From positions 3,099 to 67,098 of the forward strand of contig JBKUJR010000010.1 in assembly GCA_046952735.1 (NCBI GenBank): a stretch of DNA of 64,000 nt, in the 5' to 3' direction. This DNA comes from Clostridia bacterium (GTDB lineage Bacteria > Bacillota > Clostridia > UBA1212 > UBA1255). The notes below the pieces were generated by a model. That model saw only the letters and a program-made list of their open reading frames with translations. It made no database searches and was not told the origin of the DNA. Below are positions 21,682 through 63,691 of this stretch, piece after piece. Numbering within the stretch: the first letter of the stretch is position 1; every line of letters starts with the position of its first letter. The position numbers were made by a program, and so were the translations under genes.

Positions 21682-22001
21682 ATGATGAGCAAAACAGTTC
21701 AGATCATCAAAGCAAACAAAGCGTCTGCCAAGGATGTATTGCGCGTTGCGGCATACTGCCTAGTACAGACTCAGAGGATCAGGTGAATTCCTTTATTGCG
21801 CAGATGCACTATTATTACAGTTTTATTCATCAAGCAGAAAACATGACGCTTGTAGATATTTATGCCGACGATAGTGTGTCTGGCAGACTAAATCCAATGA
21901 ATACTATTAGTTTAGGCTTTGGCGGTTTCCCCGCTAAAGCGTCGGTCGTGTTTCGGCGTTTTACAGTCTTGCAAGGGAATGTGTGCGGGTTCTTTGTGTA
22001 A
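21682..22001 (+). pseudogene. large serine recombinase N-terminal fragment (frameshifted)
   Basis: MMSKTVQIIKANKASAKDVLRVAAYC then, after a frame change, STDSEDQVNSF...DIYADDSVSG. This parallels the AAYCRVSTDDEDQFNSY...GIYADEGITG segment of the copy at 33975. Confidence 0.5.
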
Positions 22002-22175
22002 GCTTAGCCTGAAAACACTCCCCGGCTTGCCCCCGGATTTCTTCACCGCATATATCACATCATATCCTTGCGTTATCATAAAATATTCGTCAAGATCACC
22101 CAGTGTTTTTCAGTAATTATTCTTTGAAATCTGCGTTGTAAATAGATAGGAGCCATTTTTCTGTAAAAAACAAAA

Positions 22176-23022: not shown

Positions 23023-23093
23023 TCTTCCTCTCTTTTTGGGTCATATCATTTTAGTACATACAGTTTTTCGGCAAGTATTTTTTAACATGCATT

Positions 23094-23123
23094 GACAATT
23101 ATGGAAGATTTGTGATATCATGC
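23094..23123 (+). promoter_or_regulatory. putative promoter of the peptide-modification cluster (TTGACA, 18 nt spacer, TG-a-TATCAT extended -10)
   Basis: TTGACA at 23094 and an extended -10 TGATATCAT. A leader of about 270 nt follows. Confidence 0.4.
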
Positions 23124-23397
23124 ATTTAAGCTAAATACTAGCTTTCTGTGCTGAATTAATCGCAGGGAGAAACCTGATTATGACATACCGAACCGACAGC
23201 AAGAGTCTTGCTTATTCCTCTGGATTCATACATCGATTTGACGATGGATTACCGCCGTTATGTTTTTCTGTGTTGCAAAATATTTTTGCAAAAAGCGCAA
23301 AGCGTCCGCTAGGAGATGGCTTTGCGCTTTTGCTTTTGAACATAAGAATTTTATATATTGGTTTATACGTGCTTCGGAGTTTGTAGATACCCTGTAA

Positions 23398-24261
23398 TTG
23401 GGCGATTTCGCAGTATTAGAAATGAGGCTTAAAATGTTTTATTCATTTTATAAAAATGCCGAATATAGTATGGAAGATGATTTGCGTTATCTAAAGCTAT
23501 ATTCCGATTATGATCATGCAGAAAACGGGCAAACACAAGATGTTAATTTCACATTTGATACCAAATCGCTAGAATTGATACAAATTAGAGACACTTGGAA
23601 TATTGATGACGTTATGGGGTTAGGTACGGAGCTTCAGAGAATTGTCAAATTGAAAAAATGGGCTTTCGAGTTATTATGTTTTAGTGGGAAAAAACTTGAA
23701 AGTAGGCATTACGAAACGCTTAATTGTTTTGAAACTATTCAATCAGCAATAAGTGAAGGTTATTCATTGAATTGTAGATATATCTCCCTTATTTTTACAC
23801 AAATATTATTAGCTGCAGGATTCAAAGCGAGATGGGTATCTTGTTTGCCTATGGAGTTAAATTACTGTGAGTGTCATTGTGTTTCCGAAGTATTTATTGA
23901 GGAATATAGAAAATGGATCGTTGTAGATGTTGCATTAAATGTTTTGTATTTTGATAAGAAAGGAAGTCTTCTTAATTTATATGATATAAGGCAGCATGTA
24001 CTAAAAAATGAGCCGTTTAGAATACAATCAACAACAAAAGAACATTTTCAATATGTTTGGGAATATTGGATAAGGCATGTTTTTAGATTTAAATTCCTTT
24101 TAAATAACAAATACAATATGTTGGCATCAAGCAATAAAACATTTGTATTTTTAAACCCAAAAGGGTTTGTTGTAAACGATAAAGAAATAATTCATTCAGA
24201 GAACGACACTACGAAATTTATACATTTTTATAATGATAAATTATTTTGGAAGGGGTCTTAG
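23398..24261 (+). CDS. transglutaminase-like superfamily enzyme (papain-like Cys-His-Asp), putative peptidase
   Basis: NCRYISLIFTQILLAAGFKARWVS matches the Transglut_core Cys motif (G.C..FA..F..L.R..GIPAR.V). CHCVSEVFIEEYRKWIVVDVA supplies the His and Asp. The true start is probably the ATG at 23422 or 23434; the track starts at a TTG at 23398. Confidence 0.7.
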   Translation: MGDFAVLEMRLKMFYSFYKNAEYSMEDDLRYLKLYSDYDHAENGQTQDVNFTFDTKSLELIQIRDTWNIDDVMGLGTELQRIVKLKKWAFELLCFSGKKLESRHYETLNCFETIQSAISEGYSLNCRYISLIFTQILLAAGFKARWVSCLPMELNYCECHCVSEVFIEEYRKWIVVDVALNVLYFDKKGSLLNLYDIRQHVLKNEPFRIQSTTKEHFQYVWEYWIRHVFRFKFLLNNKYNMLASSNKTFVFLNPKGFVVNDKEIIHSENDTTKFIHFYNDKLFWKGS

Positions 24262-24265
24262 TTAT

Positions 24266-25573
24266 ATGTTTAAACAATCTAAATTTAATTACACTTGTAA
24301 AAATGATGATGGCGAATTGCTTATATATAATACATATATTGGTGCCAAAAGCATGTGTAAAATCAGAGATTTATTATTACAAGATACGTTCTTAAATAAC
24401 ATTTCAATTGAAAATGAATCAGTTCTTTCAAGCTTGTTATCAAGAGGTGTTTTGGTAAATGACGATTTAGACGAGAATTTGAAGCTAAAAAATCTTATTC
24501 ACAAAATACTATCTCCTTCTGATTTAAAACTTGTTATTAGTCTTACTGAGCAATGTAATTTTTTATGTAAGTATTGTTATGAATCGCATAACAAAATAAA
24601 GCTCACTTCAGATGTAAAATACAATATAGTGAATTATATAAGGCATAACATACACAAATTTACAGATTTAAATATAACTTGGTTCGGCGGCGAGCCACTA
24701 CTTGCACTTGATGATATAATAGAAATGTCGCAAGAATTTATAAAAATATGTACTTTTAACAGAAGAAAATATACAGCTTCAATGACTACTAATGGCTATT
24801 TATTGGATGTAGAAATATTTAAAGAACTCTTGCGTAACAGAGTCTGGGCATATCAGATAACCCTTGACGGCACAAAAGAGCTTCATGACAAGCAACGTCC
24901 AACTGTAGGAGGCAAACCTACATTTGATACTATTGTAAAAAATCTTGAAGAAATTAAAAAGTTGAAAAATCGAGATTTTCACATTGTTATCCGTTCAAAT
25001 CTTACGAGCGATATATTTAATCATTTAGACGAATATATGGAATTTATCTCTTATCTTTGCGGCGATGATAACCGTTTCTCTTTATCAGTTTGTTATGCCA
25101 GCGAGTGGTCTGATAATATCGATAAAGATTTCAAGGATACGTTTATTAATAACCGTAACAACATTTTTCCATTATATGAAAAATTTCTAAAATGCAAAAG
25201 TCAAATTAATTTTGCTTTTTTATTAAATCCTGAAGATGGAGCATGTGAACTGGGACGTGATAATAGGTTTTTTGTTCGTCCCAACGGAGAATTACATAAG
25301 TGTTCTGTGGGATTTGAGAATAAAAAAAATATCATTGGCGTATTTTCCGGCAATCAAATTACGCTTAGTGATAACTATTATGAAAAAATAATAGATCCAA
25401 GTATGTGCAGCAATTTTGAAAGTTGTTTCTTTGCTCCTATATGCAAAGGCGAAGTCTGCCCTGCGGTGCGAAGTGAAAAAAATACTAGTTGCCCCGACTC
25501 GAAAAATCACCTAAGTTACATACTTCGTTTATTAGACAAATCGAATCAGATTGTCCGTATTGATGAAAAATAA
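24266..25573 (+). CDS. radical SAM/SPASM-domain peptide maturase
   Basis: CNFLCKYC is the CxxxCxxC radical SAM cluster motif. A C-terminal SPASM-like Cys cluster follows (CELGRD...HKCSVGF...MCSNFESCFFAPICKGEVC). RBS GGAAGGGG precedes the ATG at 24266. Confidence 0.85.
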   Translation: MFKQSKFNYTCKNDDGELLIYNTYIGAKSMCKIRDLLLQDTFLNNISIENESVLSSLLSRGVLVNDDLDENLKLKNLIHKILSPSDLKLVISLTEQCNFLCKYCYESHNKIKLTSDVKYNIVNYIRHNIHKFTDLNITWFGGEPLLALDDIIEMSQEFIKICTFNRRKYTASMTTNGYLLDVEIFKELLRNRVWAYQITLDGTKELHDKQRPTVGGKPTFDTIVKNLEEIKKLKNRDFHIVIRSNLTSDIFNHLDEYMEFISYLCGDDNRFSLSVCYASEWSDNIDKDFKDTFINNRNNIFPLYEKFLKCKSQINFAFLLNPEDGACELGRDNRFFVRPNGELHKCSVGFENKKNIIGVFSGNQITLSDNYYEKIIDPSMCSNFESCFFAPICKGEVCPAVRSEKNTSCPDSKNHLSYILRLLDKSNQIVRIDEK

Positions 25574-25586
25574 GGAGTTAAAAATT

Positions 25587-25841
25587 ATGGATAAATCATT
25601 GATAAGAAATAATATTATTCAAGCCTTAGCAAAAGTTTTTATCTTTGTTGACAGCGCCGAAAATGAAGATGTTGATTTGGAAACATATATTGATGATTCT
25701 ATACAATTTATGTCTTTCATAGTTGAATTAGAGCAAATTTTCAATATCGAGTTTCCACCTGAATTGTTATTGTTTGATAATTTCAAGACCATCAATAACA
25801 TATCCTTAATTATAGAGGAGATGTCAGCATTAGATGCCTAG
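25587..25841 (+). CDS. acyl/peptidyl carrier protein-like (PP-binding) small protein
   Basis: An 84-aa protein with an ACP helix-2 signature around a Ser (YIDDSIQFMSFIVELEQIFNIEF). Strong RBS AAGGAG 9 nt before the ATG at 25587. Confidence 0.6.
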   Translation: MDKSLIRNNIIQALAKVFIFVDSAENEDVDLETYIDDSIQFMSFIVELEQIFNIEFPPELLLFDNFKTINNISLIIEEMSALDA

Positions 25842-25903
25842 TAATATTAGCCACAGGGCACTTTGTGTTAATATGATTATTCTCGAGAAAGGAGGATGCT
25901 GTT

Positions 25904-26035
25904 ATGACAAAAAAAGTCAAACTAAAAAAGCCGCAAGTCAAGAAAGACGATAAAATCTTGACTCTGTATAGCACGGAAACGAATGGCGTTGATTCATGCT
26001 GCCCAAGCGGTCAGAGTGGAAACTGCACCTGCTGA
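25904..26035 (+). CDS. candidate RiPP precursor peptide, 43 aa, Cys-rich C-terminus (not in the ORF track)
   Basis: RBS GGAGGA sits 7 nt before the ATG. Translation: MTKKVKLKKPQVKKDDKILTLYSTETNGVDSCCPSGQSGNCTC. It has a Lys-rich leader-like N-terminus and four Cys in the last 12 residues. It lies directly downstream of the rSAM/SPASM and carrier genes and is followed by a terminator. Confidence 0.55.
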   Translation: MTKKVKLKKPQVKKDDKILTLYSTETNGVDSCCPSGQSGNCTC

Positions 26036-26062
26036 ATTACTTAAATAAGTAAAATCCAAAAC

Positions 26063-26100
26063 CGCCTATATAGTAAAGTGCCTTACTATATAGGGCTTTT
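26063..26100 (+). terminator. intrinsic terminator/attenuator after the precursor peptide
   Basis: A roughly 15-bp stem GCCTATATAGTAAAG/CTTACTATATAGGGC followed by TTTT. Placement after the peptide is typical for high peptide-to-enzyme expression ratios. Confidence 0.5.
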
Positions 26101-26119
26101 GGTAGAAAGTAAGAAAGAA

Positions 26120-27901
26120 ATGAAAAAGTTAACCATATTTTCCGAATTACTACGATATGCATGGAAAAATCACAAATCACTTGTATTTGTGATTGTGTTT
26201 GAAAATATATTCTCCGCTACGCTTCCTCTAATAAACGTAGTTGGTATCGGCGTTATTATAGACGCTTTAACAAATGGACTCAGTAATAAAGCAGTGATGA
26301 ATATAATTTTAATGTTTACTGCATTGAATTTAGGCGTTTCATTGATAAAATATGTTTTAACATATTTGCATAATATAGCGGCACGAAAAGCGTCGGATAA
26401 AATTCAATATGATTATATGCGAGATGGGATTATCGTAAATTATCACTGGGCGCAGGACGGTTCTGTTCTTGATATGAAAAAGAAGTCAATGGGAGCTAAT
26501 CCCGTATTCGTATTTTCGCATATTGGAAACTTTATTGATTATATAGTAAAATTTGCCGGTATCCTATTTATTTTTTCAATGCTCAGTCCGCTGTTTATAA
26601 TTATGATTTCTGCTACATCGGCAATTTCAATCGTAATAACATTTAAAATACGGAAACTTGATTTTGAATTTGAAAATGAACGCACAGAAGATTCTCGCAA
26701 ACTCGATTATCTCTATAATCTTATGACACGGTATGAATACGCAAAAGAGGTCAGAATAAATAATTTAAAGCCTCTGATTATACACAAAAATGCTGGTATT
26801 ATCGCTACTCAATTAGTGAAACTTAAAAAATTTATGCGGTTAAAACTGCGTTTTGATAGTCTATCCGCTGTTGTTGCGGTAGTACAATCAGTTATTATGT
26901 ATTCGTATTTTTCTTATCGTGTTTATATCGGCAGCCTGACTATAGCTGATTACTCTGTTCTGCTGGGAGCTGTGGCGTTATTGACGTCTATTTTGATTGG
27001 TTTTTTTGATAATATTGCCGTTATAGACAGAATGACGGCTCGTATGGATATATTCCTTAAGTATAAAAAATGGGTACGTGAGAACAGCGATATTTTCGCT
27101 ACAAATGAAATACCTCAAAGCGTAATTGATGAAAAGCATAATCAAATAAATTTTGAAAATGTAAGCTTTATTTATCCAAATACCGATATTTCAATACTTC
27201 GTAATTTGAACTTTGTTTTGAAAGATGGGCAGAAAGTCGGAATTGTCGGATTGAACGGTTCCGGCAAGACAACGCTTGTTAAACTTCTTCTTCGCCTTTA
27301 TACGCCAACACAAGGGAAAATACTTCTTAACGGTATTGATATTAACACAATTCCCCTTGAACAATATTTAAAGCGGATTGGCGTGGTTTTGCAGGATTTC
27401 AACATTTTCGCATATTCAATTAAAGAAAATGTCGTTTTCGATAACAATGTTAGCGAAGATGTACTCAACAACGCTATTGAAAAAAGCGGCTTTGCGGGGA
27501 AAGTGGCAAGTTTAAAGGACGGCGTTGATACAATTCTATATAAAGAGCTTGATGAAAACGGGATAGAACTTTCCGGAGGTGAAGGGCAAAAATTAGCGCT
27601 CGCACGCGCACTCTGTAAAGATACCGGAATTTTAATCCTTGACGAACCGACTTCCACTCTTGATCCTATTGCCGAATACGAAATGTTTTCAAGTTTACAT
27701 GACATTTCAGAGGGAAAGACTACAATATTCATTTCCCATAGGCTTTCATCGACTAAATTCTGTGACCGTATTTTTGTGATTCAAGACGGAGTTATTGCTG
27801 AAGATGGTTCTCATAGCGAGTTGATGGCACAAGGCGGGTTATACGCCGATATGTTTGAATCTCAGGCAAAATTTTATAGAGAAAATGGTGTGCTATTATG
27901 A
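26120..27901 (+). CDS. ABC exporter, fused permease-ATPase (no C39 peptidase domain)
   Basis: An N-terminal six-TM domain followed by a nucleotide-binding domain with Walker A GLNGSGKTTL, signature LSGGEGQKLALARAL and Walker B ILILDEPTS. Confidence 0.85.
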   Translation: MKKLTIFSELLRYAWKNHKSLVFVIVFENIFSATLPLINVVGIGVIIDALTNGLSNKAVMNIILMFTALNLGVSLIKYVLTYLHNIAARKASDKIQYDYMRDGIIVNYHWAQDGSVLDMKKKSMGANPVFVFSHIGNFIDYIVKFAGILFIFSMLSPLFIIMISATSAISIVITFKIRKLDFEFENERTEDSRKLDYLYNLMTRYEYAKEVRINNLKPLIIHKNAGIIATQLVKLKKFMRLKLRFDSLSAVVAVVQSVIMYSYFSYRVYIGSLTIADYSVLLGAVALLTSILIGFFDNIAVIDRMTARMDIFLKYKKWVRENSDIFATNEIPQSVIDEKHNQINFENVSFIYPNTDISILRNLNFVLKDGQKVGIVGLNGSGKTTLVKLLLRLYTPTQGKILLNGIDINTIPLEQYLKRIGVVLQDFNIFAYSIKENVVFDNNVSEDVLNNAIEKSGFAGKVASLKDGVDTILYKELDENGIELSGGEGQKLALARALCKDTGILILDEPTSTLDPIAEYEMFSSLHDISEGKTTIFISHRLSSTKFCDRIFVIQDGVIAEDGSHSELMAQGGLYADMFESQAKFYRENGVLL

Positions 27902-29679
27902 AATTTATAAAGAACAAAATAATCGCTCCATTCGAGATCATCTCACTTATTTTCAAACATTCTCCCAGATATTTTGTGTTTTTCGTACCGCAAGTGATTT
28001 GCTCTTCTCTTTTGCCTTTGTTATATGTTTATGCGCCAAAATTAATTATTGAGGCCTTAACCGAAGGCAAGGATTATGATGGTATATTTAAAATCATAAT
28101 TCTTTTCTGCGGAACGGCGTTAATTTTAAATCTTATTATAGGTTATTTGAATAAGAAAATCAGTTACTGCGTGGAAAATTTCAGCAGAAAACTGTCCTCT
28201 GAAATAGGTCGAATCGTTATGAATCTCAGCCTTTCAGAAATTGAAAACACAACAGAGCGCGACAATATTCGCCTTGCGGGCAATGCTGCGGGAACAATAG
28301 AATTGTGTGAAGTCATTAGAAAATTAATACAAAATATTATAACGCTCATCGGATTCGTTGGGATTGTTTCTGAACTGGATATTAAATTTTTTGTAGTAGT
28401 TGCTATTTTGTTGATAGTGAAAATTATATTCACTTATATTAATTATAGAGCAAATCTCAAACTTCGTATACTGACTGCGCAAAACGACAGAACAGGCAAT
28501 TATCTTACCAATCTTTGTTATTTCAATCAAGGTGCTGCTAAGGAGATACGGGTAAACAGCATTCAATTATGGTTTCTTCAAAAAGTAAAAAAATTCAGAC
28601 AGAGGATGGTAAGATTACAGTATAAAGAGTTCCGCCGAAACTTATTTTTTGATAGTATTAACGCCATTTTGTTTGCGGCTTCTTCATTTTACATTCTTTG
28701 GAGTTTATCAACATATTACCTTGACAACGCTATTTCAATCGCTGATTTTACCCTTTATTTCACAACCATCACAGCATTGAGCGCTGCATTGGGAACAATT
28801 ACAGACCTTATAGCGCAATACAATAAACAGCTTAAAAATGCAGCTGATTTTGGGAAACTTAAAACATTATCAGAACAAAACGAAAAACATCCGTCATCAG
28901 ATATTGCACCTTTTGAAGAGTCGTCAAATATAGAAATTTGTTTTTCTGATGTATGGTTTGCTTATCCGGGCAGTAAAGATTTTGTACTTAGGGGAATTGA
29001 TATAAAAATTACTAACCGCGAAAAGCTGGTTATTGTCGGATATAACGGTGCGGGGAAAAGTACGTTTATAAAACTTCTCTGCAAATTTTATCGCCCTACA
29101 AGGGGAGCAATAACCTTAAATGGTATAGATATTTGGGAGATACCAAACGAACAATATAACAGAATAATTGGCGCGGTTTTTCAAGATTTTGTTACGTTCG
29201 CATTTACAATATCCGAAAATATATCAATGAGCGAAAATAATGACGATTTGTCCGGAGTTTTATTAAAAGCAGGACTTTTAGATTTTGTAATCAATTTGCC
29301 TGACGGCGAACAAACATACATTTCAAAAAAGTTTTCATCTGAGGGCATAGAGCTTTCAGGTGGACAAGGGCAAAAAATAGCTCTTGCCCGCGCGATGTAC
29401 AAAAATGCTCCTGTATTAATTCTCGACGAACCGACAGCAAGTCTTGATTTAAAGGCTGAGAGTGAATTGTATGAAAATTTCATGAAAACTGCTTTTGATA
29501 AAACCGCATTATTTATCTCTCACCGTTTGGCGGCTTCCCAGATAGCAGATTGTATCGCGGTTTTATCGGATGGGAAAATAGCTGAATGCGGAACACATAA
29601 AGAGCTTATAGAAAAAAACGGATTGTATGCCGAAATGTTTGAAAAACAGAGTAAACCATATATCCAAGATAAAGTATAA
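27898..29679 (+). CDS. ABC exporter, fused permease-ATPase (second half of a probable heterodimer)
   Basis: ATGA start/stop overlap with the upstream ABC gene. Walker A GYNGAGKSTF, signature LSGGQGQKIALARAM, Walker B LILDEPTASLD. Confidence 0.85.
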   Translation: MKFIKNKIIAPFEIISLIFKHSPRYFVFFVPQVICSSLLPLLYVYAPKLIIEALTEGKDYDGIFKIIILFCGTALILNLIIGYLNKKISYCVENFSRKLSSEIGRIVMNLSLSEIENTTERDNIRLAGNAAGTIELCEVIRKLIQNIITLIGFVGIVSELDIKFFVVVAILLIVKIIFTYINYRANLKLRILTAQNDRTGNYLTNLCYFNQGAAKEIRVNSIQLWFLQKVKKFRQRMVRLQYKEFRRNLFFDSINAILFAASSFYILWSLSTYYLDNAISIADFTLYFTTITALSAALGTITDLIAQYNKQLKNAADFGKLKTLSEQNEKHPSSDIAPFEESSNIEICFSDVWFAYPGSKDFVLRGIDIKITNREKLVIVGYNGAGKSTFIKLLCKFYRPTRGAITLNGIDIWEIPNEQYNRIIGAVFQDFVTFAFTISENISMSENNDDLSGVLLKAGLLDFVINLPDGEQTYISKKFSSEGIELSGGQGQKIALARAMYKNAPVLILDEPTASLDLKAESELYENFMKTAFDKTALFISHRLAASQIADCIAVLSDGKIAECGTHKELIEKNGLYAEMFEKQSKPYIQDKV

Positions 29680-29711
29680 TATATTTTTAATTGAAAACGA
29701 GGGGTTGGATT

Positions 29712-31490
29712 ATGAAGAAAATAAAAATAGCGATACTTGACAGCGGAGTAAGGAAAGATCACCCTGCTTTTTCAACTAAAACGATAAACGGTTTTTCTCT
29801 TCGTTTAATAGATGAATCTGTAGAACAATATGCAGAATTTATTGATAACGTAGGACACGGAACGGCAATCTTTTACCTTATAGATAAATTTATTGATAAT
29901 GTAGAAATCACAAATATAAAGATATATGATACTAATTCTGAATTAACACAATATAATTTTGAAATGCTGTTAGATTTTATTTGTAAAAATTATGATTTCG
30001 ATATAATCAACATAAGTATGGGATTTTTAAGCTGCGGCAGTGTCGCTAACTTACAAAAAATATGCGATGATTTTTACGCAAGAAGAACATTAATTATATC
30101 CGCTTTTGATAACAACGGCGCAGTTTCTTTTCCTGCCGCACTAAATAATGTAATAGGAGTTGACGGACAAGAAAATATTGATTCGTTAAATGGTTATATA
30201 CATGTGGAAAACAGTATTGTAAATATAATCGGAAAGCTCAAAAACATGAGAGTAGCCTGGTTGGCGCCTGATTATATAATTGTAAAAGGCAACAGTTTTC
30301 TTTGTGCAAATATTACTGCCAATGTGGCAAAATGTTTACAAGAGCAAGGGGTTGTGGATTGGCAAAAAATATGCACTGACAAATATTTGTTTCCAAAAAC
30401 TTTAGACAATCATATTCCGTTTAATATACGCAAAGCAGCGGTATTCCCTTTTAATAAAGAATTACATGCGATTGCGAGATTTGAGGAATTATTGAATTTT
30501 GATATAATAGATTATTATTCAATAAGAATAACGGGATACATTGGTAAAAAAATATCTGATGTTTTACCTGATTGCAGCAACGATAAGGTTATTAAGAATA
30601 TTGATGATATTGAATGGAATGAGTTTGATACTTTGATACTGGGTCATACCGGTGAATTATCGAGGTTAACTAAAAGTGATTATAGAACCACTCTTTTAAA
30701 TAATGCCATTGAAAAGGGTAAAAACATATATTGCTTTGATAATCCTATGCCAATTATAAACAATCCCAAATATACGGATGTATATTTTCCTAAAATTGAT
30801 AGTACAAACATTAAAAAAAGATTTGGCAAATTATATAAAACAGATAAACCGATTATAGCTGTAATTGGAACTAATTCTCGTCAAGGTAAATTTTCGCTTC
30901 AGTTGTGTCTTAGAAAAAAATTAATAGAGTTCGGATATAGTGTAGGACAAATAGGAACTGAACCTTCTGCACTGTTATTCGGATTTGATGAAATATTTCA
31001 TTGCGGATATAACGGACAAGTTGATTTGGATATCTCTCAAACATATATAGCTGTTAATGATATGATTTGGAATATAACTCAAAAAGATGTTGACCTGATA
31101 ATTGCCGGAACTCAGAGTGGATTTCTTCCCTATAATGATTACAACGCCATGATGTTTCCGACATATCATCAAATATTCTTTTCTGCTTTACAGACTGATG
31201 CAATTATTGTATGCATAAATCCATTTGACGATATACAGTTTGTGAACAGAACTATAAAAGCGGCAGAAGGTCTTTCGGGCGGAAAGGTGATTGGAATCGT
31301 ATGCTTTCCTATTGATGTTTGTGACAGTTGGCAAGGTAACTTTGGAATGAAAGCTCGCATAAGCGAAGAAAGAGAAAATGAAATCAAGCATAAATATTGT
31401 TCGCATGAAGATATAAAAGTATATATGCTTGATAAATCTGACGAACTTGATGAATTATTATCCAAATGTATTGAATATTTCCAGCAATGA
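29712..31490 (+). CDS. subtilisin-like (S8) serine protease domain fused to a roughly 370-aa C-terminal P-loop-like domain of unknown function
   Basis: N-terminal Asp (IAILDSGV), His (DNVGHGTAI) and Ser (GNSFLCANITANVA, compare GTSMAAPHVAG) in subtilase order. The C-terminal region contains PIIAVIGTNSRQGKFSLQLCL. RBS GAGGGG precedes the ATG at 29712. Confidence 0.6.
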   Translation: MKKIKIAILDSGVRKDHPAFSTKTINGFSLRLIDESVEQYAEFIDNVGHGTAIFYLIDKFIDNVEITNIKIYDTNSELTQYNFEMLLDFICKNYDFDIINISMGFLSCGSVANLQKICDDFYARRTLIISAFDNNGAVSFPAALNNVIGVDGQENIDSLNGYIHVENSIVNIIGKLKNMRVAWLAPDYIIVKGNSFLCANITANVAKCLQEQGVVDWQKICTDKYLFPKTLDNHIPFNIRKAAVFPFNKELHAIARFEELLNFDIIDYYSIRITGYIGKKISDVLPDCSNDKVIKNIDDIEWNEFDTLILGHTGELSRLTKSDYRTTLLNNAIEKGKNIYCFDNPMPIINNPKYTDVYFPKIDSTNIKKRFGKLYKTDKPIIAVIGTNSRQGKFSLQLCLRKKLIEFGYSVGQIGTEPSALLFGFDEIFHCGYNGQVDLDISQTYIAVNDMIWNITQKDVDLIIAGTQSGFLPYNDYNAMMFPTYHQIFFSALQTDAIIVCINPFDDIQFVNRTIKAAEGLSGGKVIGIVCFPIDVCDSWQGNFGMKARISEERENEIKHKYCSHEDIKVYMLDKSDELDELLSKCIEYFQQ

Positions 31491-32428
31491 TGGAGAGATT
31501 TATGTATATAGATATTGCGTCAACAAAATATGATACATACGATTGTTACCAGAACAATATAATTGCTATTTTAGGTAATTATTTTAAAATTGATTATCGA
31601 CCGTTTTTTTGGAGCGGTTTTGATTTTCGTTTTTCAATTGATCAAAAGAAAAATTATATAAATATAACAGGATATAATGCATACCAAGAACAGATACTTT
31701 TAGAGCAATGCGGAGTGAAAATTAATTGTATAAACAAGACTTGTATTCAAAGATTCAAACAAATCATCTTAAAAGAGTTAAACGATTCTAGACCTATTGG
31801 ATTACGCCTAAACGGTTCTGATTTGTCATGGAATAATGATAATAAAAATATAGATTATCATTACTTGCTTATTATTGGTATTGATGTTTCTGCTTCTCTC
31901 ATATACTGTTGTGATAGTTTTCTTTCCGATAAAATTCAAACAATTGATATTTCTTATTTATATGAAAAAGTAGAATATATATTGATTTACTCTATATCAG
32001 AGAAAGGTCAAATATCATTTAATATGTCGAGAGCTAATTTTTTAAGATGCTTGGATTATAACAGTAAAAATAAGAATTCTGATTTGTATCATTTTATAAA
32101 TAATACTTCAATATTATTTGAGAATCTTAAAGGTACTAATCCAAATAATAATTCGGTAATATTTCAATTATCCCGTGTTTGTTGGAGCAGATATAATTTC
32201 ATGAAATCATTGGAATATTTTCACGATATATACGGCAACGAAATACTCGATAATATAAAAAAGTGTTTTAATGTTATAATCGACACATGGACAAAATTGA
32301 AAAATATATTTATAAGGGCTACTCTTATTAATAATGCGCAGCAACTTAATAAATATAGTGAATATTTTATTAAGCTAATAATTGAAACTGAATCTGTGAT
32401 ACAAAATTATTTAGAAGCGCAAAACTAA
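31487..32428 (+). CDS. hypothetical protein, possibly BtrH_N/peptidase-C39-like (Cys...His) transferase or peptidase
   Basis: A 313-aa protein with an N-terminal Cys (DTYDCYQNN) and a downstream His in a beta-strand context (DYHYLLIIGIDVS), as in the papain-like BtrH/C39 fold. Its start overlaps the upstream stop. This is a family assignment from memory only. Confidence 0.35.
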   Translation: MMERFMYIDIASTKYDTYDCYQNNIIAILGNYFKIDYRPFFWSGFDFRFSIDQKKNYINITGYNAYQEQILLEQCGVKINCINKTCIQRFKQIILKELNDSRPIGLRLNGSDLSWNNDNKNIDYHYLLIIGIDVSASLIYCCDSFLSDKIQTIDISYLYEKVEYILIYSISEKGQISFNMSRANFLRCLDYNSKNKNSDLYHFINNTSILFENLKGTNPNNNSVIFQLSRVCWSRYNFMKSLEYFHDIYGNEILDNIKKCFNVIIDTWTKLKNIFIRATLINNAQQLNKYSEYFIKLIIETESVIQNYLEAQN

Positions 32429-32443
32429 AATAGGAGGATTCAA

Positions 32444-32689
32444 ATGGAGGAAAAAGTAATAAATATAATATGTCAAGCAATAACACTGGAAAGTGATATT
32501 TTGATTACAGTTGACACACTACTTTCTGACTTGCCGTTTGATTCTATAAAATTTATTAAAATGGTGGTAGCTTTAGAAAGTGAATTTGATTTTGAATTTG
32601 AGGATGAAAAATTGCTCTTTACACAATTTCAAACGGTGAAGTCGTTAATTGAATATGTTGATTTGAAAGTTAATTCACTGAATAAATAA
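32444..32689 (+). CDS. second acyl/peptidyl carrier protein-like small protein
   Basis: An 81-aa protein with LSDLPFDSIKFIKMVVALESEFDFEF, an ACP-like Ser motif. RBS AGGAGG. Confidence 0.55.
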   Translation: MEEKVINIICQAITLESDILITVDTLLSDLPFDSIKFIKMVVALESEFDFEFEDEKLLFTQFQTVKSLIEYVDLKVNSLNK

Positions 32690-32904
32690 AATGTGTAAAT
32701 GATCAAGCTAAGATTCTGATAAGAGAGTAACCCGTGAAATTACTTTATTTCTGGGCATCGCTAAACTGTGAAAGCATTCCATTTCGGTGTTTTGCTATAA
32801 CTGTACCATTACTGATTTTATTTCTCTACAACAAATAAGACCAATTTTAAGTTTTTGATGGCGTGGCTGCAAAAAAGTTACATAAAAACCTGATTTATTT
32901 TTAG

Positions 32905-33980
32905 ATTTGTCTTGACACGGGGAGACGAGGGTATTACGGGAACATGTCTTGCCAAGCGTGATGAGTTTAACCGTATGATACGTGACAGCAAGGAAGGGAA
33001 GATTGACCGTATCTATGTAAAAAGCGTTTCCCGTTTTGCAAGAAATGCTTTAGATTGCCTTGATAGTATCTGTATTCTGAAAGAGTACGGCGTGTCGGTG
33101 TTCTTTGAAAATGACGCTATTGATACGCAGACACTCAATTCCGAACTTGTGCTGTATATTAAAAGTGCATTTGCCCAGGCTGAATCAATGACAGGTCCAA
33201 AAGGGTGAAGACGAGCAACAGGATGCGTGCGGAAAGCGGTCACTATACCTTTACAGCACCGCCATTCGGTTACAGAATGGAAAACAACACGCTGATTCCC
33301 GTGCAGGAAGAGGCGGAGATTGTTATTCGTATCTATAAGGAATACCTTTGCGGTATGGGCGTGAGCAAGATTGTATCGGGATTGAACTCTGATCCGGATG
33401 TTCCGGGCAAGCCGTGGAGGAAAGAGGGCGTTCGGTATATCCTTGCTAATGAGAAGTACATCGGAGACAGTCTCTTTCAAAAAAGCTTCACGCCAAATGA
33501 ACTGCCTTTCAGAAATCGTGTAAATCGTGGTGAGGTGGAAAAGTACGATATCTCGGGTACCCATGAGGTAATTATGGATAGGAAACTTCATTCTGCCGTA
33601 CAGGAGATGCTGCGTCGTAATGTCGAAAAGCAGGCGAAAAAAGCAAGACCTCGTAAATTTAACTTCAGCAACAAAATATTCTGCGCATCCTGTGGATGGA
33701 CATATAAGCAATGAACGGGATTTTGTCGCAGGAAGCGCTGAATTTCCAGCCCGCAAAAAAAGCACTCTTTGATCTCCTGAATGCGCAGTTTGACTGCTGT
33801 GAGCCGGATCGCTCCGGCGTAGTAGAGTATATAAATGACTGTAAATCAATCGACGCAGTCGATGTGTCGCTTTTCAAGGTAATTCTTTCGGAAATTCAAA
33901 TCGATGCAAACGGAACGGTCGCTCTGCGCTTTGCAAATAACGCCGTCATTTCGTTGGAAGGGAGCGAGGAGCATGAATAA
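32905..33980 (+). pseudogene. large serine recombinase, N-terminally truncated and frameshifted (three frames)
   Basis: DEGITGTCLAKRDEFNRMIRD...VKSVSRFARN is the resolvase domain, lacking the catalytic-Ser N-terminus. The recombinase domain at 33205-33714 ends in a CxxC zinc-ribbon start (CASCGWTYKQ). A C-terminal tail lies in a third frame at 33711-33980. Confidence 0.6.
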
Positions 33981-34771
33981 CAGCAATCAGACAACGCAAA
34001 AGATCGTGACGAAAATCGCCGCCAATCCTGCACTGTCCAAAAAGTTCGATCCGAACCGTCCCTCAAAATAGCGGCATACTGCCGTGTATCCACTGATGAT
34101 GAGGATCAGTTTAACAGCTACAGAACGCAGAAAGCATACTACACCGATTACATCAAAAAGAACCCCAAATGGCGTTTCACCGGAATTTATGCTGACGAGG
34201 GTATTACAGGAACTTTGGTAAAAAAACGCGACGATTTTCTTCGCATGATAGCGGATTGCGAAAAAGGAAAGATCGACCTTATTCTGATTAAATCGGTTTC
34301 CCGATACGCAAGAAACATCGTGGATTGCATTTCGTATATACGCAAGCTCAAGGCACTGGGGATCGGAATCTACTTCGAGGAGCAGAATATCAGCTTACTG
34401 AGGACAGCGAGGTATATATCGGTATCTACGGCGTTATGGCACAGTCGGAAAGTGAGAATATTAGTGCTAATGTTAAGTGGGGAATCAATAAGCGGATGCA
34501 GAACGGTACATATGCCTGCCGCTTTAATTTGCTTGGATACCGCAGAGATAAGGAAACTAAGGAAATTAGGATTATACCCGAGGAAGCAGAGATTGTAAAA
34601 AAGATATTCCGTATGTATCTGCAGGGTTCGAGTTTGGATCAAATCAAGGCGTATTTGGAAGAGAACGGCGTTAGGACAGTGAGGGGAAATCTAAAATGGG
34701 ATAAGCACGGCATCCGATCTATGCTGACAAATGAGAAGTATGCGGGGGATATATATCCACTTTTTTTATAA
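33975..34771 (+). pseudogene. second large serine recombinase, frameshifted and 3'-truncated
   Basis: ATG at 33975 with an RBS. A 1-nt frameshift precedes KIAAYCRVSTDDEDQ (catalytic Ser motif). GIYADEGITGTLVKKRDDFLRMIAD and the recombinase domain follow with another frameshift near 34380. About 70% nucleotide identity to the upstream copy. Confidence 0.6.
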
Positions 34772-59015: not shown

Positions 59016-62000
59016 TTATTTTTCAACGCTCTCCATATTTGCTTTACACAGGGCGGTGAAGTCGTCGTCTGAGACCATATCGGCGGGATGCCGGATGCCG
59101 ATATAAAGGTCCGAATCTTCAGATAACGCAAATTTGATTTCAAATACACCGAAAACCTCTTTTGAAATGATATGGCGTTCGGCAATGCATTCTCCCGTTC
59201 GGATGTTCTGTACAAACAGATAGGCGCCCGTCTCTCCTGTCAGGAGCTCGAATGTGCATTTATGGGAGCCTGCGCGCAGATGCAGGCCTTGATACAGGCT
59301 CGTGTCGCCTTCCCTGAAATACCGCATAACGCCGCAGACTTTTCCGTTTACCTGATGTACGGCCACGGAGTCTTTCTTTTTATTCCTTTTATAAGACCAG
59401 TTCGACAGGTTCGGCTGCATACTGATGCAGAAATCGCCGTTCTGGAAATTGTCCGCAGAATATATGCCGCAGTCGGAAAGAAAATCCGTAGCGCGGATCG
59501 GACCGAGCGTACATTCCCCTTCATAAATATTATGAAAGATCCGCACGGATTTGACCGGCGAATAATCGTCCGTTTCCGTGTTGTCGAACGGTTGCTTTCC
59601 GCCGTACGGATTATCCGGCCACGTACCGACAGGATTAACGCACGTGATATAATTGTCATACGCAGTAATATCGGAAACTTCCTGCATTTCGTAATTCGGA
59701 TCGCAGGTTCCCCAGGTAATAAAAGCAAGCGCCTTGCCGCCGCCGGAATTGAGATAGGAATGCGCAATGCGGACATGGCGCGTGCCGCCGTGCTTCCCAA
59801 GCCGCGATTTCCACCAAACCAGACCGCGCGGGTCGAAATAACAGCCGCTGAGTACGACGCCGTCGTCGTTCGACTGGAAAAAATTCCGGTTCAAAGCAAC
59901 ATGATGCGAGCCTTTGGAAAGACCGAAACCGTCGCCGCTGACGCAGCGCACCTCGTGCAGCTTGAGATTTGCGGCGTATATATAGGCGCAGCCATATAAC
60001 CCCACATGATAATTATTGGTCCTGACGAGCGAAAAATCGCGGAGCTCCAGATGCTCCACTTCATAGAAGCCGATCGGAATCTGATGGATCCTGTCCGGAC
60101 ACCCTGTAGAATAACTGCCCAGGGATACGCCCTCTTCCGCGCCTGTGTCCACGGACCGGATCTTGCCGAACCCTGTGATTTTAACGTATTCGCTGTACGC
60201 GCATTGTAAAGTCGGAAGATTTGCCACATGTAAGCAGTGCGTCCAGTTGATATTCGGCATTCCGATATCATGCCCATAAGAAGGCACATATCGATAATCC
60301 CGGTAGATCGGAGACTGCCACAACACGGCGCCCGGTTCAAAATGAAGTTCAACGCGGCTTCTGAGAAGTAAATTCGTAATCCGGTAGCGTTTTCCGTAAA
60401 ATACGGTTTGCGGGTCTGCTTCTGCTGTTCCGGGAATGATCACAGTCCCGCCCCCCTGCTTCCAGACCGTATCGATCGCATTCTGGATCGCTTCCGTATC
60501 GTCCGTACAGGCATCTCCCTTGGCGGAGAACGGCGCATCCGTAACAGTTACCAGATAATCCGGCAGTCTGAATTCATAAGGATTATGATCGAAATCCATA
60601 TAATTTTCGATGTAAAAACGCTCTCCGACCGGAATGGTAACGCCGTTTACCGAAAGATAAGCCGCAAATTGGTAGGAAAGGCGGGTGATCGGACCATTTT
60701 GAAAGGGGATCCCGGGAACCGTAAATTCTATCCGGCCGTCTTTGATGCCGGGATTTTCGTTTAGAGCCTGACGGCTGAGGGAGGCGGTTGTCAGAAGCTC
60801 CTTCCCATCGGGTAAATCGCTTTCGTCCATCATCGTCGTAGCATAGATCGATACGATTCCGCCTTCGCTTCCATATGCTTCTTCTATGTATCCTTTCACG
60901 GTGATTTCGTCGCCGCAGGCGAGACACGATGTGATCTCTCCGGCATTTTTTGTGATTTTTCGTTCTTCTTCAAAAGAATATTCCCGTATTACAAGCTCGC
61001 CGGCCCCGCTGCATACGAGTTTAAATTGCAGAAGCCTGCCTTCGCAGCCGGGCGTAGCGGACAAGTTGAAATAATACGACCGATACTCCGGGGAACGGCT
61101 GATTTGCACTTCCGCAGAATTTTCTTCGCAATATTCCGGATGCAGCGTCGTTTTATAATAAAGTTTCAGTTTTGAGGCGGTAGAGGTATTCTTCAATACC
61201 ATAAATACCGTATTTCGCCGCGGCATCAGCATGTTATAAACACTTTTCGACGTATCGGGGAAAACGCAGGTTTCGATTTCGCACGCCCCGTTTATTTTAC
61301 AGGAAAGCGTATCGTCTTTCTCCGTAAGCGTGCAGCCGGAGGCCGTATAGAAAGGCGCCTGCCCTTTGTATCTGAAATATGGATCCAGCACGTTCAATTT
61401 TAACAGCCTGAACTCTTTTAGCGGCCTGCCGGCTGAAACGGACAGTCTGGAAACCTGTGCGAATTCCATGTCGTTGCAGTCGAAGTATACCGTATTTTCA
61501 CCGGGAACGAGCGCTGCTTTGGAAACGAAAGCAGCGGAGCCGTGACAGAATGTAACGGTTATTTCCGTTGCGGCGCCGTTAGAAGTTATTTGGCCGTCGG
61601 CAGTATACGCCCCCGTATCGTATGCGGGATCGAATTCTTGCTGTTCTGCTTCGCAGACACATTCCAGCGTAAACCCGGAACAGCCGGAAAGGTCGAACGA
61701 GACGGGGAATACATGCGTTTTTTTGTTTTCCAGTACGGTATCCGGCTCCGGTTCGAAAAGGATGTCTCCCGTTTGGTACAGAAACCTGCCGGTAATCCTG
61801 TTGGAATGATCGACGCCGCGTTTTTTCTGTGCTTCATAGTAGTTGTATTTCGTATAAATCGCAGGTTCTTTTTCCAATGCCAGCAGTTGTTCTTTCCATT
61901 TCCGGCCTACTGGGAAGTCAACAGGAGAGTCGTCTCCGCCAATCACTCTGTGAGAAGGGATACAAAATAATAATTTATTGGCGCATACGGCATCTGATAC

Positions 62001-62327
62001 GGCTTTTACGCTTTGCGGGCTGCCAATGCGCTCGGCGAGTTCTTTACAGGAAATCGTTTCTCCGTACGGTATTTCTGCAATTTCTTTCCAGACCCGATTC
62101 TGAAAGTCGGCGCCTGTGAGACGGTAGGGGAACGTGAATGCGCTCCGATCGCCTGCAAAATATTCTTTCAACTGCATGATGCACAAATTTGTACAGATAT
62201 TTGGTTCGCAGTTTTCTTCCGGCATTTTTCCGGGCGGCAGCAGCCGGATGGAAAGAACGGATTCTTCCTCGGCTTCCACTTCGTAAGTTCCGGACGGAAT
62301 CGTAAAATATTCTTTAAATTGGCTCAT
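59016..62327 (-). CDS. fusion protein: N-terminal Ogt/MGMT-like domain with Ser replacing the acceptor Cys, plus a roughly 940-aa pectate-lyase-superfamily right-handed beta-helix
   Basis: FQNRVWKEIAEIPYGETISCKELAERIGSPQSVKAVSDAVCANKLLFCIPSHRVIG aligns to the Ogt motif ...PCHRV with PSHRV. The downstream segment GDACTDDTEAIQNAIDTVWKQGGGTVIIPGT is a Pectate_lyase_3-type start. No signal peptide. Confidence 0.7.
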   Translation of the reverse strand: MSQFKEYFTIPSGTYEVEAEEESVLSIRLLPPGKMPEENCEPNICTNLCIMQLKEYFAGDRSAFTFPYRLTGADFQNRVWKEIAEIPYGETISCKELAERIGSPQSVKAVSDAVCANKLLFCIPSHRVIGGDDSPVDFPVGRKWKEQLLALEKEPAIYTKYNYYEAQKKRGVDHSNRITGRFLYQTGDILFEPEPDTVLENKKTHVFPVSFDLSGCSGFTLECVCEAEQQEFDPAYDTGAYTADGQITSNGAATEITVTFCHGSAAFVSKAALVPGENTVYFDCNDMEFAQVSRLSVSAGRPLKEFRLLKLNVLDPYFRYKGQAPFYTASGCTLTEKDDTLSCKINGACEIETCVFPDTSKSVYNMLMPRRNTVFMVLKNTSTASKLKLYYKTTLHPEYCEENSAEVQISRSPEYRSYYFNLSATPGCEGRLLQFKLVCSGAGELVIREYSFEEERKITKNAGEITSCLACGDEITVKGYIEEAYGSEGGIVSIYATTMMDESDLPDGKELLTTASLSRQALNENPGIKDGRIEFTVPGIPFQNGPITRLSYQFAAYLSVNGVTIPVGERFYIENYMDFDHNPYEFRLPDYLVTVTDAPFSAKGDACTDDTEAIQNAIDTVWKQGGGTVIIPGTAEADPQTVFYGKRYRITNLLLRSRVELHFEPGAVLWQSPIYRDYRYVPSYGHDIGMPNINWTHCLHVANLPTLQCAYSEYVKITGFGKIRSVDTGAEEGVSLGSYSTGCPDRIHQIPIGFYEVEHLELRDFSLVRTNNYHVGLYGCAYIYAANLKLHEVRCVSGDGFGLSKGSHHVALNRNFFQSNDDGVVLSGCYFDPRGLVWWKSRLGKHGGTRHVRIAHSYLNSGGGKALAFITWGTCDPNYEMQEVSDITAYDNYITCVNPVGTWPDNPYGGKQPFDNTETDDYSPVKSVRIFHNIYEGECTLGPIRATDFLSDCGIYSADNFQNGDFCISMQPNLSNWSYKRNKKKDSVAVHQVNGKVCGVMRYFREGDTSLYQGLHLRAGSHKCTFELLTGETGAYLFVQNIRTGECIAERHIISKEVFGVFEIKFALSEDSDLYIGIRHPADMVSDDDFTALCKANMESVEK

Positions 62328-63102
62328 TTTGTTTTCCTCCGCGTTTCTTTAAAAATTTTCTATAAATCAACGATGATATAATGGACAAGGATAAATGGAT
62401 CACGACAGACAGGATAAATACGGGCGAGTCCGGCTCTGTGATTGTAGCGCCTACCAGCGTAACGGTTATGATGGACGGCACGCAGCCAAGCACGCCGCCG
62501 GTAATATATTTAAAAAATGAAATTCTGCTTGCCCCCATATAAAGGCTCAATACGTCGCAGGGAATAAAACCGATGATCCGCATGATGTAGGAGAGAAAAA
62601 AACTGTTCTCACTCTGGATGCGGCCGACTTTTGCAATTATACCGCGCTTGTCGTATTTCTCGATAAATTTATCGGCAGCCTTCTGCCCGATCAGTCTTCC
62701 CAGCCAATAGGGAATACTGAGACATACGGCGACGCCGATCGTGTTGACGGCCAGAGACAGCAACTGAGAATCGAAAAACATCCCGCCGGCAATCATCAAA
62801 AGATTCAGGGGGACGACGATCAGAATGCTCTTTATGGCATAGGCACAGATGAGATAGGCGGAAGCCAGCCAGCGATTGTCCATACGGAAACGCATGATAT
62901 CCTCTAAAGTCAGCTGTTTTCCGATCATAACCAATATGACGACGGTGAATACGATTCCGATAATCGGCAGCGATTTAAAGAGGATATTGCCTGCGGGCGA
63001 CTGCGCCCGCAGGCTACGGCGGCCATGAAGTTGTTCGTCTTTGTTTTTCTGCTCCTGGGGCGTCGTATTTTTCATTTGTTTTTGTGTCGTATCTTTCCTC
63101 AT
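62314..63102 (-). CDS. TVP38/TMEM64 (DedA-related) family membrane protein
   Basis: A 262-aa multi-TM protein with SNARE-associated/DedA-like core motifs. Confidence 0.75.
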   Translation of the reverse strand: MRKDTTQKQMKNTTPQEQKNKDEQLHGRRSLRAQSPAGNILFKSLPIIGIVFTVVILVMIGKQLTLEDIMRFRMDNRWLASAYLICAYAIKSILIVVPLNLLMIAGGMFFDSQLLSLAVNTIGVAVCLSIPYWLGRLIGQKAADKFIEKYDKRGIIAKVGRIQSENSFFLSYIMRIIGFIPCDVLSLYMGASRISFFKYITGGVLGCVPSIITVTLVGATITEPDSPVFILSVVIHLSLSIISSLIYRKFLKKRGGKQNEPI

Positions 63103-63295
63103 GAACCCACCTGTTCGCTGTTTCTCAGTATAATATACTATATATTGTACGTAATCGCAATATTATAAAATTTTCTTGCAAAAGAGACTTAAATTTCATT
63201 GCCGTCCGGACAGAAAAACATTGAAAAAGGTTGACAAATGTAGTCCTTGCAGGTATAATCGGTCTACGATTATAGTCCGACAGGAGTTTATAGAA

Positions 63296-63691
63296 ATGGA
63301 AAAACAGATTCTTGCGAGCGAATGGAAAATTATGGAATATGTGTGGACACATCCGGATTGCACGCTGATGCAGATTGTCAAAGCGATGAAGGAAGAGACC
63401 GGATGGGCAAAAAGCACTGTTACGACGATGGTTTCCCGCATGGAAAACAAAGGGCTGCTGCTGTTTGCGGAAAACGGAGGCAGGGCAAAGCGGATCGGCG
63501 CCGCAGTAACGCGCGAAGAAGCCGGAACGGCGGAAACCAAATCGCTGCTGGATAAAATTTACCGGGGCAGCGTCGGAATGCTTGTCTCTTCTCTGGTTGC
63601 CCAGGAAAAGCTTTCGAGAAAAGAAATCGAGGAATTATATGATATTTTAAAAAAAGCGGAGGAAGCTAAAGATGCCGGAAATGACGTTTGA
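63296..63691 (+). CDS. blaI: BlaI/MecI/CopY-family transcriptional repressor
   Basis: SEWKIMEYVW...TVTTMVSRMENKGLL winged-helix penicillinase-repressor signature. The likely start is the ATG at 63296 after RBS CAGGAG. Confidence 0.8.
   Translation: MEKQILASEWKIMEYVWTHPDCTLMQIVKAMKEETGWAKSTVTTMVSRMENKGLLLFAENGGRAKRIGAAVTREEAGTAETKSLLDKIYRGSVGMLVSSLVAQEKLSRKEIEELYDILKKAEEAKDAGNDV

Follow-up and report, generated by a model that had tools for sequence, protein, structure and literature searches.

A clade-wide fusion of Ogt to a GH28-like β-helix protein in gut Clostridia, and a member whose alkyltransferase module has lost its acceptor cysteine

The 64,000-nucleotide stretch of contig JBKUJR010000010.1 considered here (Clostridia bacterium, GenBank assembly GCA_046952735.1; referred to in full as the window) contains an open reading frame (ORF) whose 1103-residue product begins with a module homologous to Ogt, the bacterial O6-alkylguanine-DNA alkyltransferase (AGT), and continues through a linker into three β-sandwich domains, a right-handed β-helix resembling that of glycoside hydrolase family 28 (GH28) and a C-terminal β-sandwich domain. 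This arrangement was seen in profile searches, in an AlphaFold2 model of the protein built on a 29-sequence family alignment (mean predicted local distance difference test score, pLDDT, 81.7; predicted TM-score, pTM, 0.77) and in 16 clusters of full-length orthologues at 53–99% identity, which were retrieved in a homologue search covering 5.8 billion proteins. It is a real and undescribed Ogt fusion architecture that is inherited across a small group of species; literature searches returned nothing relevant on glycosidase-Ogt fusions or on natural AGTs with Ser at the acceptor position. The parts of the protein are as follows.

59016..62327, minus strand: whole fusion ORF, 1103 amino acids (aa)
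62118..62327, minus strand: Ogt N-terminal domain (aa 1-70), a Methyltransf_1N-like β-sheet and helix
61869..62108, minus strand: Ogt C-terminal DNA-binding/active-site domain (aa 74-153)
62046..62048, minus strand: Cys94 (TGT; 'ISCKELA'), at the position of the base-flipping Tyr (human Y114)
62004..62006, minus strand: Lys108 (AAA; 'SVKAV'), at the position of the Arg finger (human R128)
61953..61955, minus strand: Ser125 (TCT) at the acceptor Cys position, in the motif P-S-H-R-V (IPS125HRV)
61899..61940, minus strand: degenerate pocket loop (aa 130-143)
61782..61868, minus strand: junction and linker (aa 154-182)
60630..61781, minus strand: three β-sandwich domains (aa 183-314, 327-455 and 463-566), without a Pfam match, pLDDT mostly 85-95
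59463..60560, minus strand: right-handed β-helix, GH28-like (aa ~590-955), with the N-terminal cap motif GDACTDDTEAIQ...GGGTVIIPG
59931..59933, minus strand: Asp799 in 'SGDG', aligned to the catalytic Asp of GH28 'N-x-D-G'
59862..59867, minus strand: Asp821-Asp822 in 'QSNDDG', aligned to the catalytic pair of GH28 'G-D-D'
59019..59450, minus strand: C-terminal β-sandwich domain (aa 960-1103), from the AlphaFold2 model

The initial annotation had likened the N-terminal part to Ogt, and this was upheld by profile and structural comparisons alike. Residues 74-153 match PF01035 (E=2.4e-20, 72.6 bits against a cutoff of 27) and the TIGR00589 'ogt' model (8.2e-21, 73.8 bits, cutoff 46.4), while a phmmer search of the PDB matched residues 48-156 to Mycobacterium tuberculosis Ogt (1.9e-19), with 'IPSHRVIG' aligned to 'VPCHRVIG'. 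The N-terminal domain, which comprises strands within residues 4-29 and a helix at 44-57, was modelled at a pLDDT of ~80-88; PF02870 is a precomputed match for several orthologues, and the Foldseek alignment to full-length M. tuberculosis OGT (4wxc/4bhc) covers ~160 columns with a TM-score of 0.81 normalised to the target. As modelled, residues 1-156 are a complete two-domain Ogt, sharing the fold (TM ~0.8) of bacterial PF02870+PF01035 proteins such as M. tuberculosis Ogt (4BHB/4WXC; ~33% identity) and E. coli Ogt/Ada-C (1SFE).

The functional elements conserved in AGTs are the Cys, the Arg finger, the Tyr, the Asn hinge and the active-site loop (PMC10779285), and both the Cys and the Tyr are present in 100% of 50 non-redundant standalone Ogts. 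In the window protein the acceptor Cys has been replaced by Ser125, as the initial annotation had noticed, through a TCT codon that lies one transversion away from TGT. Because TCT recurs in L069 and L070, independent assemblies of unrelated samples, each of which carries 34 other codon differences from the window, Ser125 is not a sequencing error. Two further replacements accompany it: Cys94 stands at the Tyr position, and Lys108 at a position occupied by Arg in M. tuberculosis Ogt and in most fusion orthologues, including the sister proteins P0002 and P0003. The pocket loop reads 'GGDDSPVDFPVGRK' against a family and standalone consensus of 'GSDGSLTGFAAGLK', and is the least confidently modelled part of the module (pLDDT 52-68). 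At positions strongly conserved in the 50 standalone Ogts, and to which P0002 and P0003 conform, the window module departs at T73A, Y94C, G115C, C125S, G133D, L135P, T136V, G137D, A139P and L142R. It keeps the helix-turn-helix, the Asn hinge (N117), H126 and R127 of the motif and E146, the Glu of the His/Glu network that activates the Cys. Compared with bacterial Ogts, then, including the modules of fusion orthologues that carry the full set of PCHR, Tyr and Arg, the window copy differs in having Ser, Cys and Lys at the three key sites, a rewritten pocket loop and a ~950-aa glycosidase body attached to it. With Cys, Tyr, Arg finger and pocket loop all replaced, the suicide methyl-transfer chemistry has presumably been lost, in line with the earlier proposal.

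That proposal had further compared the module to the alkyltransferase-like (ATL) proteins, and here we disagree. In ATLs all DNA-binding and base-flipping features are kept, the Cys has mostly become Trp, and only the C-terminal domain is present (PMC10779285). The window module resembles S. pombe Atl1 (3GVA) and E. coli YbaZ/eATL in being a PF01035-type domain without a nucleophilic Cys, but it has Ser where ATLs have Trp (or Ala), it has lost the Arg finger, Tyr and lesion pocket that ATLs retain, and it possesses an N-terminal domain; its match to Atl1 in the PDB is weak (E=0.0048, as compared with 1e-19 for true Ogts). It is best described as a catalytically dead Ogt rather than an ATL, and judging from the residues replaced it could probably neither accept an alkyl group nor recognise an O6-alkylguanine lesion in the manner of an ATL. 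A damage sensor that binds O6-alkylguanine and hands the lesion to another pathway, with the β-helix as its effector, might still be imagined from the replacement of the Cys alongside retention of H126, R127, N117 and E146, and from the observation that human AGT with a Cys to Ser change forms a stable complex with O6-methylguanine DNA that permits its crystallization (PMC10779285). That laboratory mutant (C145S; PDB 1T38), however, shares only the acceptor substitution with the window protein: it keeps Tyr114, Arg128 and the pocket, and still flips and holds the lesion. The Lys, the Cys and the rewritten, low-confidence loop, together with the presence of the N-terminal domain, all speak against such a sensor, as do the normal PCHR Ogt carried by sister species within the same fusion, the carbohydrate-type motifs of the β-helix and the fact that the β-helix family mostly lacks any DNA-binding module. 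We consider a sensor role very unlikely.

The remainder of the protein was initially taken for a β-helix of ~940 aa. In the AlphaFold2 model, a short linker helix follows the Ogt module, the β-helix itself is ~370 aa long, and the rest of the body is made up of four β-sandwich domains. The fold had been assigned to the Pectate_lyase_3 type; a pectate-lyase/GH28-type fold was recovered by profile searches and by Foldseek, but PF12708 (Pect-lyase_RHGA_epim) itself matches the window protein only weakly (E=0.0022, 18.3 bits, under the 27-bit cutoff) and only at the N-terminal cap (aa 600-642), and it is matched weakly by all nine relatives tested, at best with 7.4e-7. NCBIfam models of GH28 type match aa 600-830, that for the BT4146 rhamnogalacturonidase at 2.6e-8 (33 bits against a cutoff of 500), and PF00295 (GH28) has no match in the window protein and reaches E=0.081 in one of the nine relatives. 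When a family profile of the helix region was compared with the PDB, GH28 enzymes were found (5olp, 8.7e-11; 3jur, 2.7e-10; 2uve, 5.6e-9), and the top structural matches in Foldseek were GH28 exo-polygalacturonases (2uvf, 4.6e-11), with 3jur (1.1e-9), 5olp (9.2e-9) and 1bhe (6e-6) also matched.

The motifs SGD799G and, 22 residues on, QSND821D822G are conserved in 27 of the 29 family members, R[NC][FL][FL]QSNDD being the most conserved motif of the body family, and they align concordantly with the NxDG and GDD of 5olp, 3jur and 2uve. At 150 near-invariant columns the window body deviates twice, and nowhere in the helix. No His motif aligned to G/S-H-G was found, nor was a clear R-I-K; at the turns that follow, the family has an invariant 'NSGGGK865ALAF' and 'VRIF', for which the comparison yielded no alignment with GH28 motifs. 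Set beside the GH28 exo-polygalacturonases and rhamnogalacturonidases (Yersinia enterocolitica 2UVF, Thermotoga maritima 3JUR, Bacteroides thetaiotaomicron 5OLP and BT4146-type enzymes), the body shares the right-handed β-helix, the cap motif GDGxTDDTxAIQxAI...GGGxVxxP and the Asp and Asp-Asp on consecutive turns; it differs in falling below the Pfam and NCBIfam cutoffs, in having the family-specific 'NSGGGKALAF' in place of a clear G-H-G or R-I-K, and in its three additional N-terminal and one additional C-terminal β-sandwich domains. We conclude from these comparisons that the body is likely a distant GH28-like glycosidase with its catalytic Asp triad intact, although sequence does not certify it as a member of GH28.

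A compartment paradox had been seen in the joining of a cytoplasmic DNA-binding module to a polysaccharide-active fold. As first reported, the fusion protein has no signal peptide, and neither does it have a transmembrane segment (maximum Kyte-Doolittle hydropathy 1.35 in a 19-aa window). The unfused body homologues, which begin directly with 'MSRYLVKDKYTYEK...', lack both as well. Because these homologues also have no signal peptide, the glycosidase family appears natively cytoplasmic, and the paradox therefore disappears, leaving the fusion topologically unremarkable. T. maritima and several gut GH28-type enzymes are likewise intracellular.

One unfused homologue, P0017, lies in a co-directional run (L072 2296-10863) with a GH43 protein, a WbsX/GH99-like protein and an unannotated 980-aa protein; this is the sole carbohydrate-type context seen for the body family, and a similar 982-aa protein is found near P0021 in L004. 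Genomes bearing the fusion also carry, on another contig, a body-only paralogue with 31-33% identity (L062-L065; for example in Ca. Egerieisoma fecal_MAG_233). Since fusion and paralogue occur in the same genomes, the body family is multi-copy in these organisms.

The fusion was described at the outset as very unusual, and its distribution agrees: in GTDB contigs, with one genome per species, it was found in ~10 species, comprising Ca. Egerieisoma spp. and gut Clostridia metagenome-assembled genomes (MAGs) from human, chicken, rabbit and ruminant hosts sampled in different studies. Egerieisoma corresponds to GTDB genus UMGS1537, in family UBA1255 of the order UBA1212 (PMC8035907). In the protein search, body-only homologues formed 13 clusters at 41-49% identity and start where the Ogt module ends; in the GTDB contigs, body-only homologues were found in ~50 further gut or rumen MAGs of Clostridia or Oscillospiraceae. 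A neighbour-joining tree of the body recovers the fusion proteins as monophyletic with 100% bootstrap support, which indicates a single origin of the fusion. Among free Ogts, the closest are ordinary proteins of ~153 aa with ~50% identity (from Mitsuokella and others), some of which share the 'GANKLL...PCHRV' variant. The junction is tight and conserved ('...LLxLEKEP|xxYTKYNY...'): 'LEKEP' is shared among fusions, and 'YTKYNYYE' matches the N-terminus 'KDKYTYEK' of unfused homologues. Two neighbouring genes would be expected to yield a junction of this form if the stop codon separating them were read through. A pre-fusion arrangement, in which an ogt gene adjoins an unfused homologue, is unsupported; the P0021, P0023 and P0017 loci have no ogt nearby.

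The same observations bear on whether the fusion might stem from a chimeric assembly or from an overlooked stop or frameshift, with its Ser due to a sequencing error. Frameshifted variants do occur in metagenome data, as does a chimera-like standalone Ogt, P0035 (159 aa, from a 754-bp ENA contig). Over its first ~90 residues P0035 shares ~90% identity with the N-domain of fusion P0013, and its C-terminal half is a canonical, unrelated 'NRNPWLVVVPCHRVIG' Ogt; it is either a recombinant or a chimera assembled across the conserved 'IPYGET' region. Against an artefactual fusion stand the continuous 1103-aa ORF and TCT codon in the window and two independent samples, the recovery of the fusion from ~10 MAG species across different hosts and studies, and the conserved junction sequence, such that an artefact is hardly conceivable.

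The initial annotation had presented the Ser as though it defined the fusion. Instead, 14 of 17 fusion proteins retain PCHR; with it they have the Tyr ('ISYKELAER') and, in most cases, the Arg finger. In the P0005 lineage the Cys position is occupied by Val, the pocket loop carries a deletion and the activating Glu is missing. Because the body tree groups the window protein with P0002 and P0003 in 97.5% of bootstraps and with P0005 in 0%, the losses of Cys in the window lineage and in P0005 were independent. A shared origin of the two, suggested by a neighbour-joining tree of the Ogt domain, was rejected on the same 0% support, although the module may conceivably have recombined. Ser125 is a lineage-specific degeneration and not a family trait. 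The base-flipping Tyr has become Cys in three fusion lineages (window/P0001, P0005 and P0014, the last of which retains PCHR), a recurrence that reflects either mutational chance (TAT to TGT) or adaptation.

Several variants carry interrupted reading frames. P0034 (180 aa) is a P0005-lineage variant from metagenome data, in which the reading frame shifts exactly at the A7 run of the linker joining Ogt to body (in L007 the linker reads 'GGAAAAAAAGCC') and a free-standing dead Ogt results; either the modules have truly come apart or the sequence contains an error. In L074 (2350-2685), which is related to P0005 but diverged from it, Glu has changed to a stop at Ogt codon 112, 7 nt before the contig end, which may represent pseudogenisation of the module. 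In L010, from MAG RGIG8679, an in-frame TAA at ~7672-7674 replaces Tyr575 ('YIEN*EDF') and splits the gene into ORFs of 562 and 528 aa, as a result of either pseudogenisation or an assembly error.

Selection on the module was assessed from pairwise ratios of non-synonymous to synonymous substitution (dN/dS, ω), using only the closest pairs, as most orthologue pairs are saturated at synonymous sites (pS > 0.75). Between the window and L001, ω is 0.13 for the Ogt module and 0.08 for the body; between L001 and L008, both of which are intact, the values are 0.12 and 0.05. L074 and L075, which belong to a lineage with Tyr to Cys and Arg to Ala changes, differ over the first 111 codons at 17 synonymous and 9 non-synonymous sites (ω 0.14; neutrality rejected with P=4.8e-6). 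Purifying selection acts on the dead-type Ogt module, with ω at ~0.14, and the module remains constrained, at least for foldability.

These values weigh on the idea that the module is a neutral relic, free of function and constraint and heading for loss, and that the fusion is an evolutionary accident. Catalytic residues have been hit several times independently, the Ogt module outpaces the body in evolutionary rate by 1-1.9 times, truncated and frameshifted variants exist in metagenomes, and the two modules degenerate reciprocally, as described below. Yet ω in the range of ~0.13-0.14 is far below 1, the module persists at full length and in frame down to 53% overall identity, and its dN relative to the body is no higher in the Ser lineage than in Cys-bearing sisters (1.46 on the window branch versus 1.9 and 1.9, by a three-taxon decomposition done by hand). 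We judge decay of this kind to be unlikely, though not to be neglected.

The converse possibility is that the dead module was exapted, to tether the enzyme to the nucleoid through residual non-specific helix-turn-helix binding to DNA, to promote oligomerisation, or to serve the glycosidase as a regulatory or ligand-binding domain. The low ω in Cys-less lineages would be expected from this, and the module is in frame in three Ser-lineage assemblies as well as in P0005, a large cluster of 138 member sequences; the recurrent Tyr to Cys change in the window protein, P0005 and P0014 may be adaptive, the 'LEKEP' junction is conserved, and the whole-chain pTM of 0.77 suggests a defined arrangement of the domains. 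Selection for foldability of the N-terminal domain of a useful enzyme would, however, yield the same ω. In addition, the changes are spread over precisely those residues that serve catalysis and form the lesion pocket, a pattern of relaxation more than of redesign, different lineages degrade different residues (Ser in one, Val plus a deletion in another), truncating variants exist (the linker frameshift of P0034 and the codon-112 stop of L074), and unfused homologues manage without any Ogt module. Exaptation thus seems to us improbable, though a serious candidate.

Two orthologues, P0015 (L012 / L073 8001-11273) and P0016, are the most divergent of the fusion proteins and form a mirror image of the window protein. 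At the 150 near-invariant body columns, other fusion members show 1-10 deviations, P0015 shows 50 and P0016 shows 53, 38 of them in the helix. The catalytic Asp residues are lost in both, as D799I/D822S in P0015 and D799N/D821G in P0016, and both keep PCHR. Because degeneration is reciprocal, with a dead Ogt and intact glycosidase in the window protein and the opposite in P0015 and P0016, the two modules appear to work independently, and a mechanism that needs both activities in cis would be hard to reconcile with the pattern.

The reading that we favour, and hold to be probable, is that the window protein is a cytoplasmic GH28-like glycosidase carrying a dead Ogt module as a folded passenger, without functional coupling between the two. 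Under this reading, an ancestor of Ca. Egerieisoma and related gut Clostridia would have acquired the fusion in a single event, when an Ogt of standalone type (~153 aa) became linked in frame to a large β-helix glycosidase at about its residue 5. Most descendants keep an apparently competent Ogt, with its PCHR, Tyr and Arg; in the window lineage the acceptor Cys, the Tyr, the Arg finger and most of the pocket loop have been replaced, which would have abolished both repair and lesion sensing. The glycosidase would be the working part, hydrolysing imported oligosaccharides, probably of acidic or pectic type, by GH28-type inverting chemistry through D799, D821 and D822, with the β-sandwich domains as putative accessory or substrate-binding modules. 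Purifying selection on the dead module would then act to preserve a folded, non-disruptive N-terminal domain and not DNA repair.

Several observations count against this interpretation. The body falls under the Pfam and NCBIfam thresholds for GH28 membership, and the alignments of its catalytic motifs are individually weak second HMMER stretches (E 1.3-14) taken together with fold similarity. There are no sugar-utilisation genes at the fusion locus. The L074 fragment stops short of the Cys codon, so that its dead status is inferred from the shared Tyr to Cys and Arg to Ala changes, and the Ogt module of the Ser lineage itself has 3 synonymous and 2 non-synonymous changes, a total of 5 (binomial P ~0.10, by hand) that is too few to discriminate. 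Purifying selection at ω ~0.14 on a dead module may equally mean that a new function has been acquired. Finally, P0030 (777 aa, NCBI) is an independent GH13 alpha-amylase-family protein with a complete, intact C-terminal Ogt (PF02870+PF01035, PCHRV), which hints that the association between glycoside hydrolases and Ogt may not be pure accident.

If this hint were followed, the Ogt-derived module might be a natural pseudo-alkyltransferase that selection has kept on a metabolic enzyme for a new purpose other than repair, such as allosteric control, oligomerisation or tethering to the nucleoid, and the fusions, which have arisen at least twice, one GH28-like and the other with GH13 in P0030, might link intracellular glycan breakdown to alkylation chemistry, for example to sugar-borne alkylating compounds; we regard this as something of a long shot. 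A role in defence or in DNA deglycosylation was set aside, given the housekeeping context (sepF/yggS), the large unfused family with one member beside GH43, and the degraded DNA-binding residues of the window protein.

Alkyltransferase modules are known to be joined to other proteins in one polypeptide, as in Ada (AraC/Zn + AGT), Ferroplasma AGT-EndoV, ATL-EndoV and the histone-like C. elegans AGT-2, and the partners described are all DNA- or chromatin-related (PMC10779285). Here, by contrast, a complete two-domain AGT stands at the N-terminus of a carbohydrate-active-type enzyme, and does so across a clade. A further protein, P0032, joins Ogt to molybdopterin-oxidoreductase and GNAT domains. 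The reciprocal decay provides a natural series from which to consider the constraints on a suicide repair protein welded to an unrelated enzyme and the persistence of pseudo-enzyme domains, and the analysis also flags a large cytoplasmic GH28-like family in about 50 or more species of gut and rumen Clostridia. If the modules are simply independent, as is most likely, the protein is a curiosity of gene fusion and not a new mechanism.

The fusion ORF starts with ATG, with a GGAGG Shine-Dalgarno sequence 8 nt upstream, and shares 14 nt at its start with the VTT/DedA-family gene that precedes it. Fusion loci are syntenic, being convergent with a sepF/yggS cluster and usually having the VTT/DedA gene before the fusion. 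A scan of the 64-kb window found no second ogt, a gene that might have accounted for the dispensability of the fused module. The neighbouring genes are as follows.

62314..63102, minus strand: VTT/DedA-family membrane protein gene, upstream of the fusion; a probable operon partner, syntenic in most fusion loci
63176-63691 and beyond, plus strand: BlaI/MecI-type repressor (Penicillinase_R) followed by a BlaR1-like M56 peptidase sensor, divergent from and upstream of the VTT/DedA-fusion pair (L069 174-2379)

Elsewhere, positions 14000-34000 of the window form a low-GC island (GC 0.30-0.39, against ~0.49-0.52 in the flanks), in which the following were identified.

13553-15172: 539-aa protein with sigma-70 region 4
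20202-20954: AAA_21/AAA_15 ATPase
24233-25573: radical-SAM enzyme
26078-29679: two ABC transporters
29691-31490: subtilase-like peptidase

This island looks like a horizontally acquired cluster for the maturation and export of a peptide of the RiPP type (ribosomally synthesized and post-translationally modified peptide).

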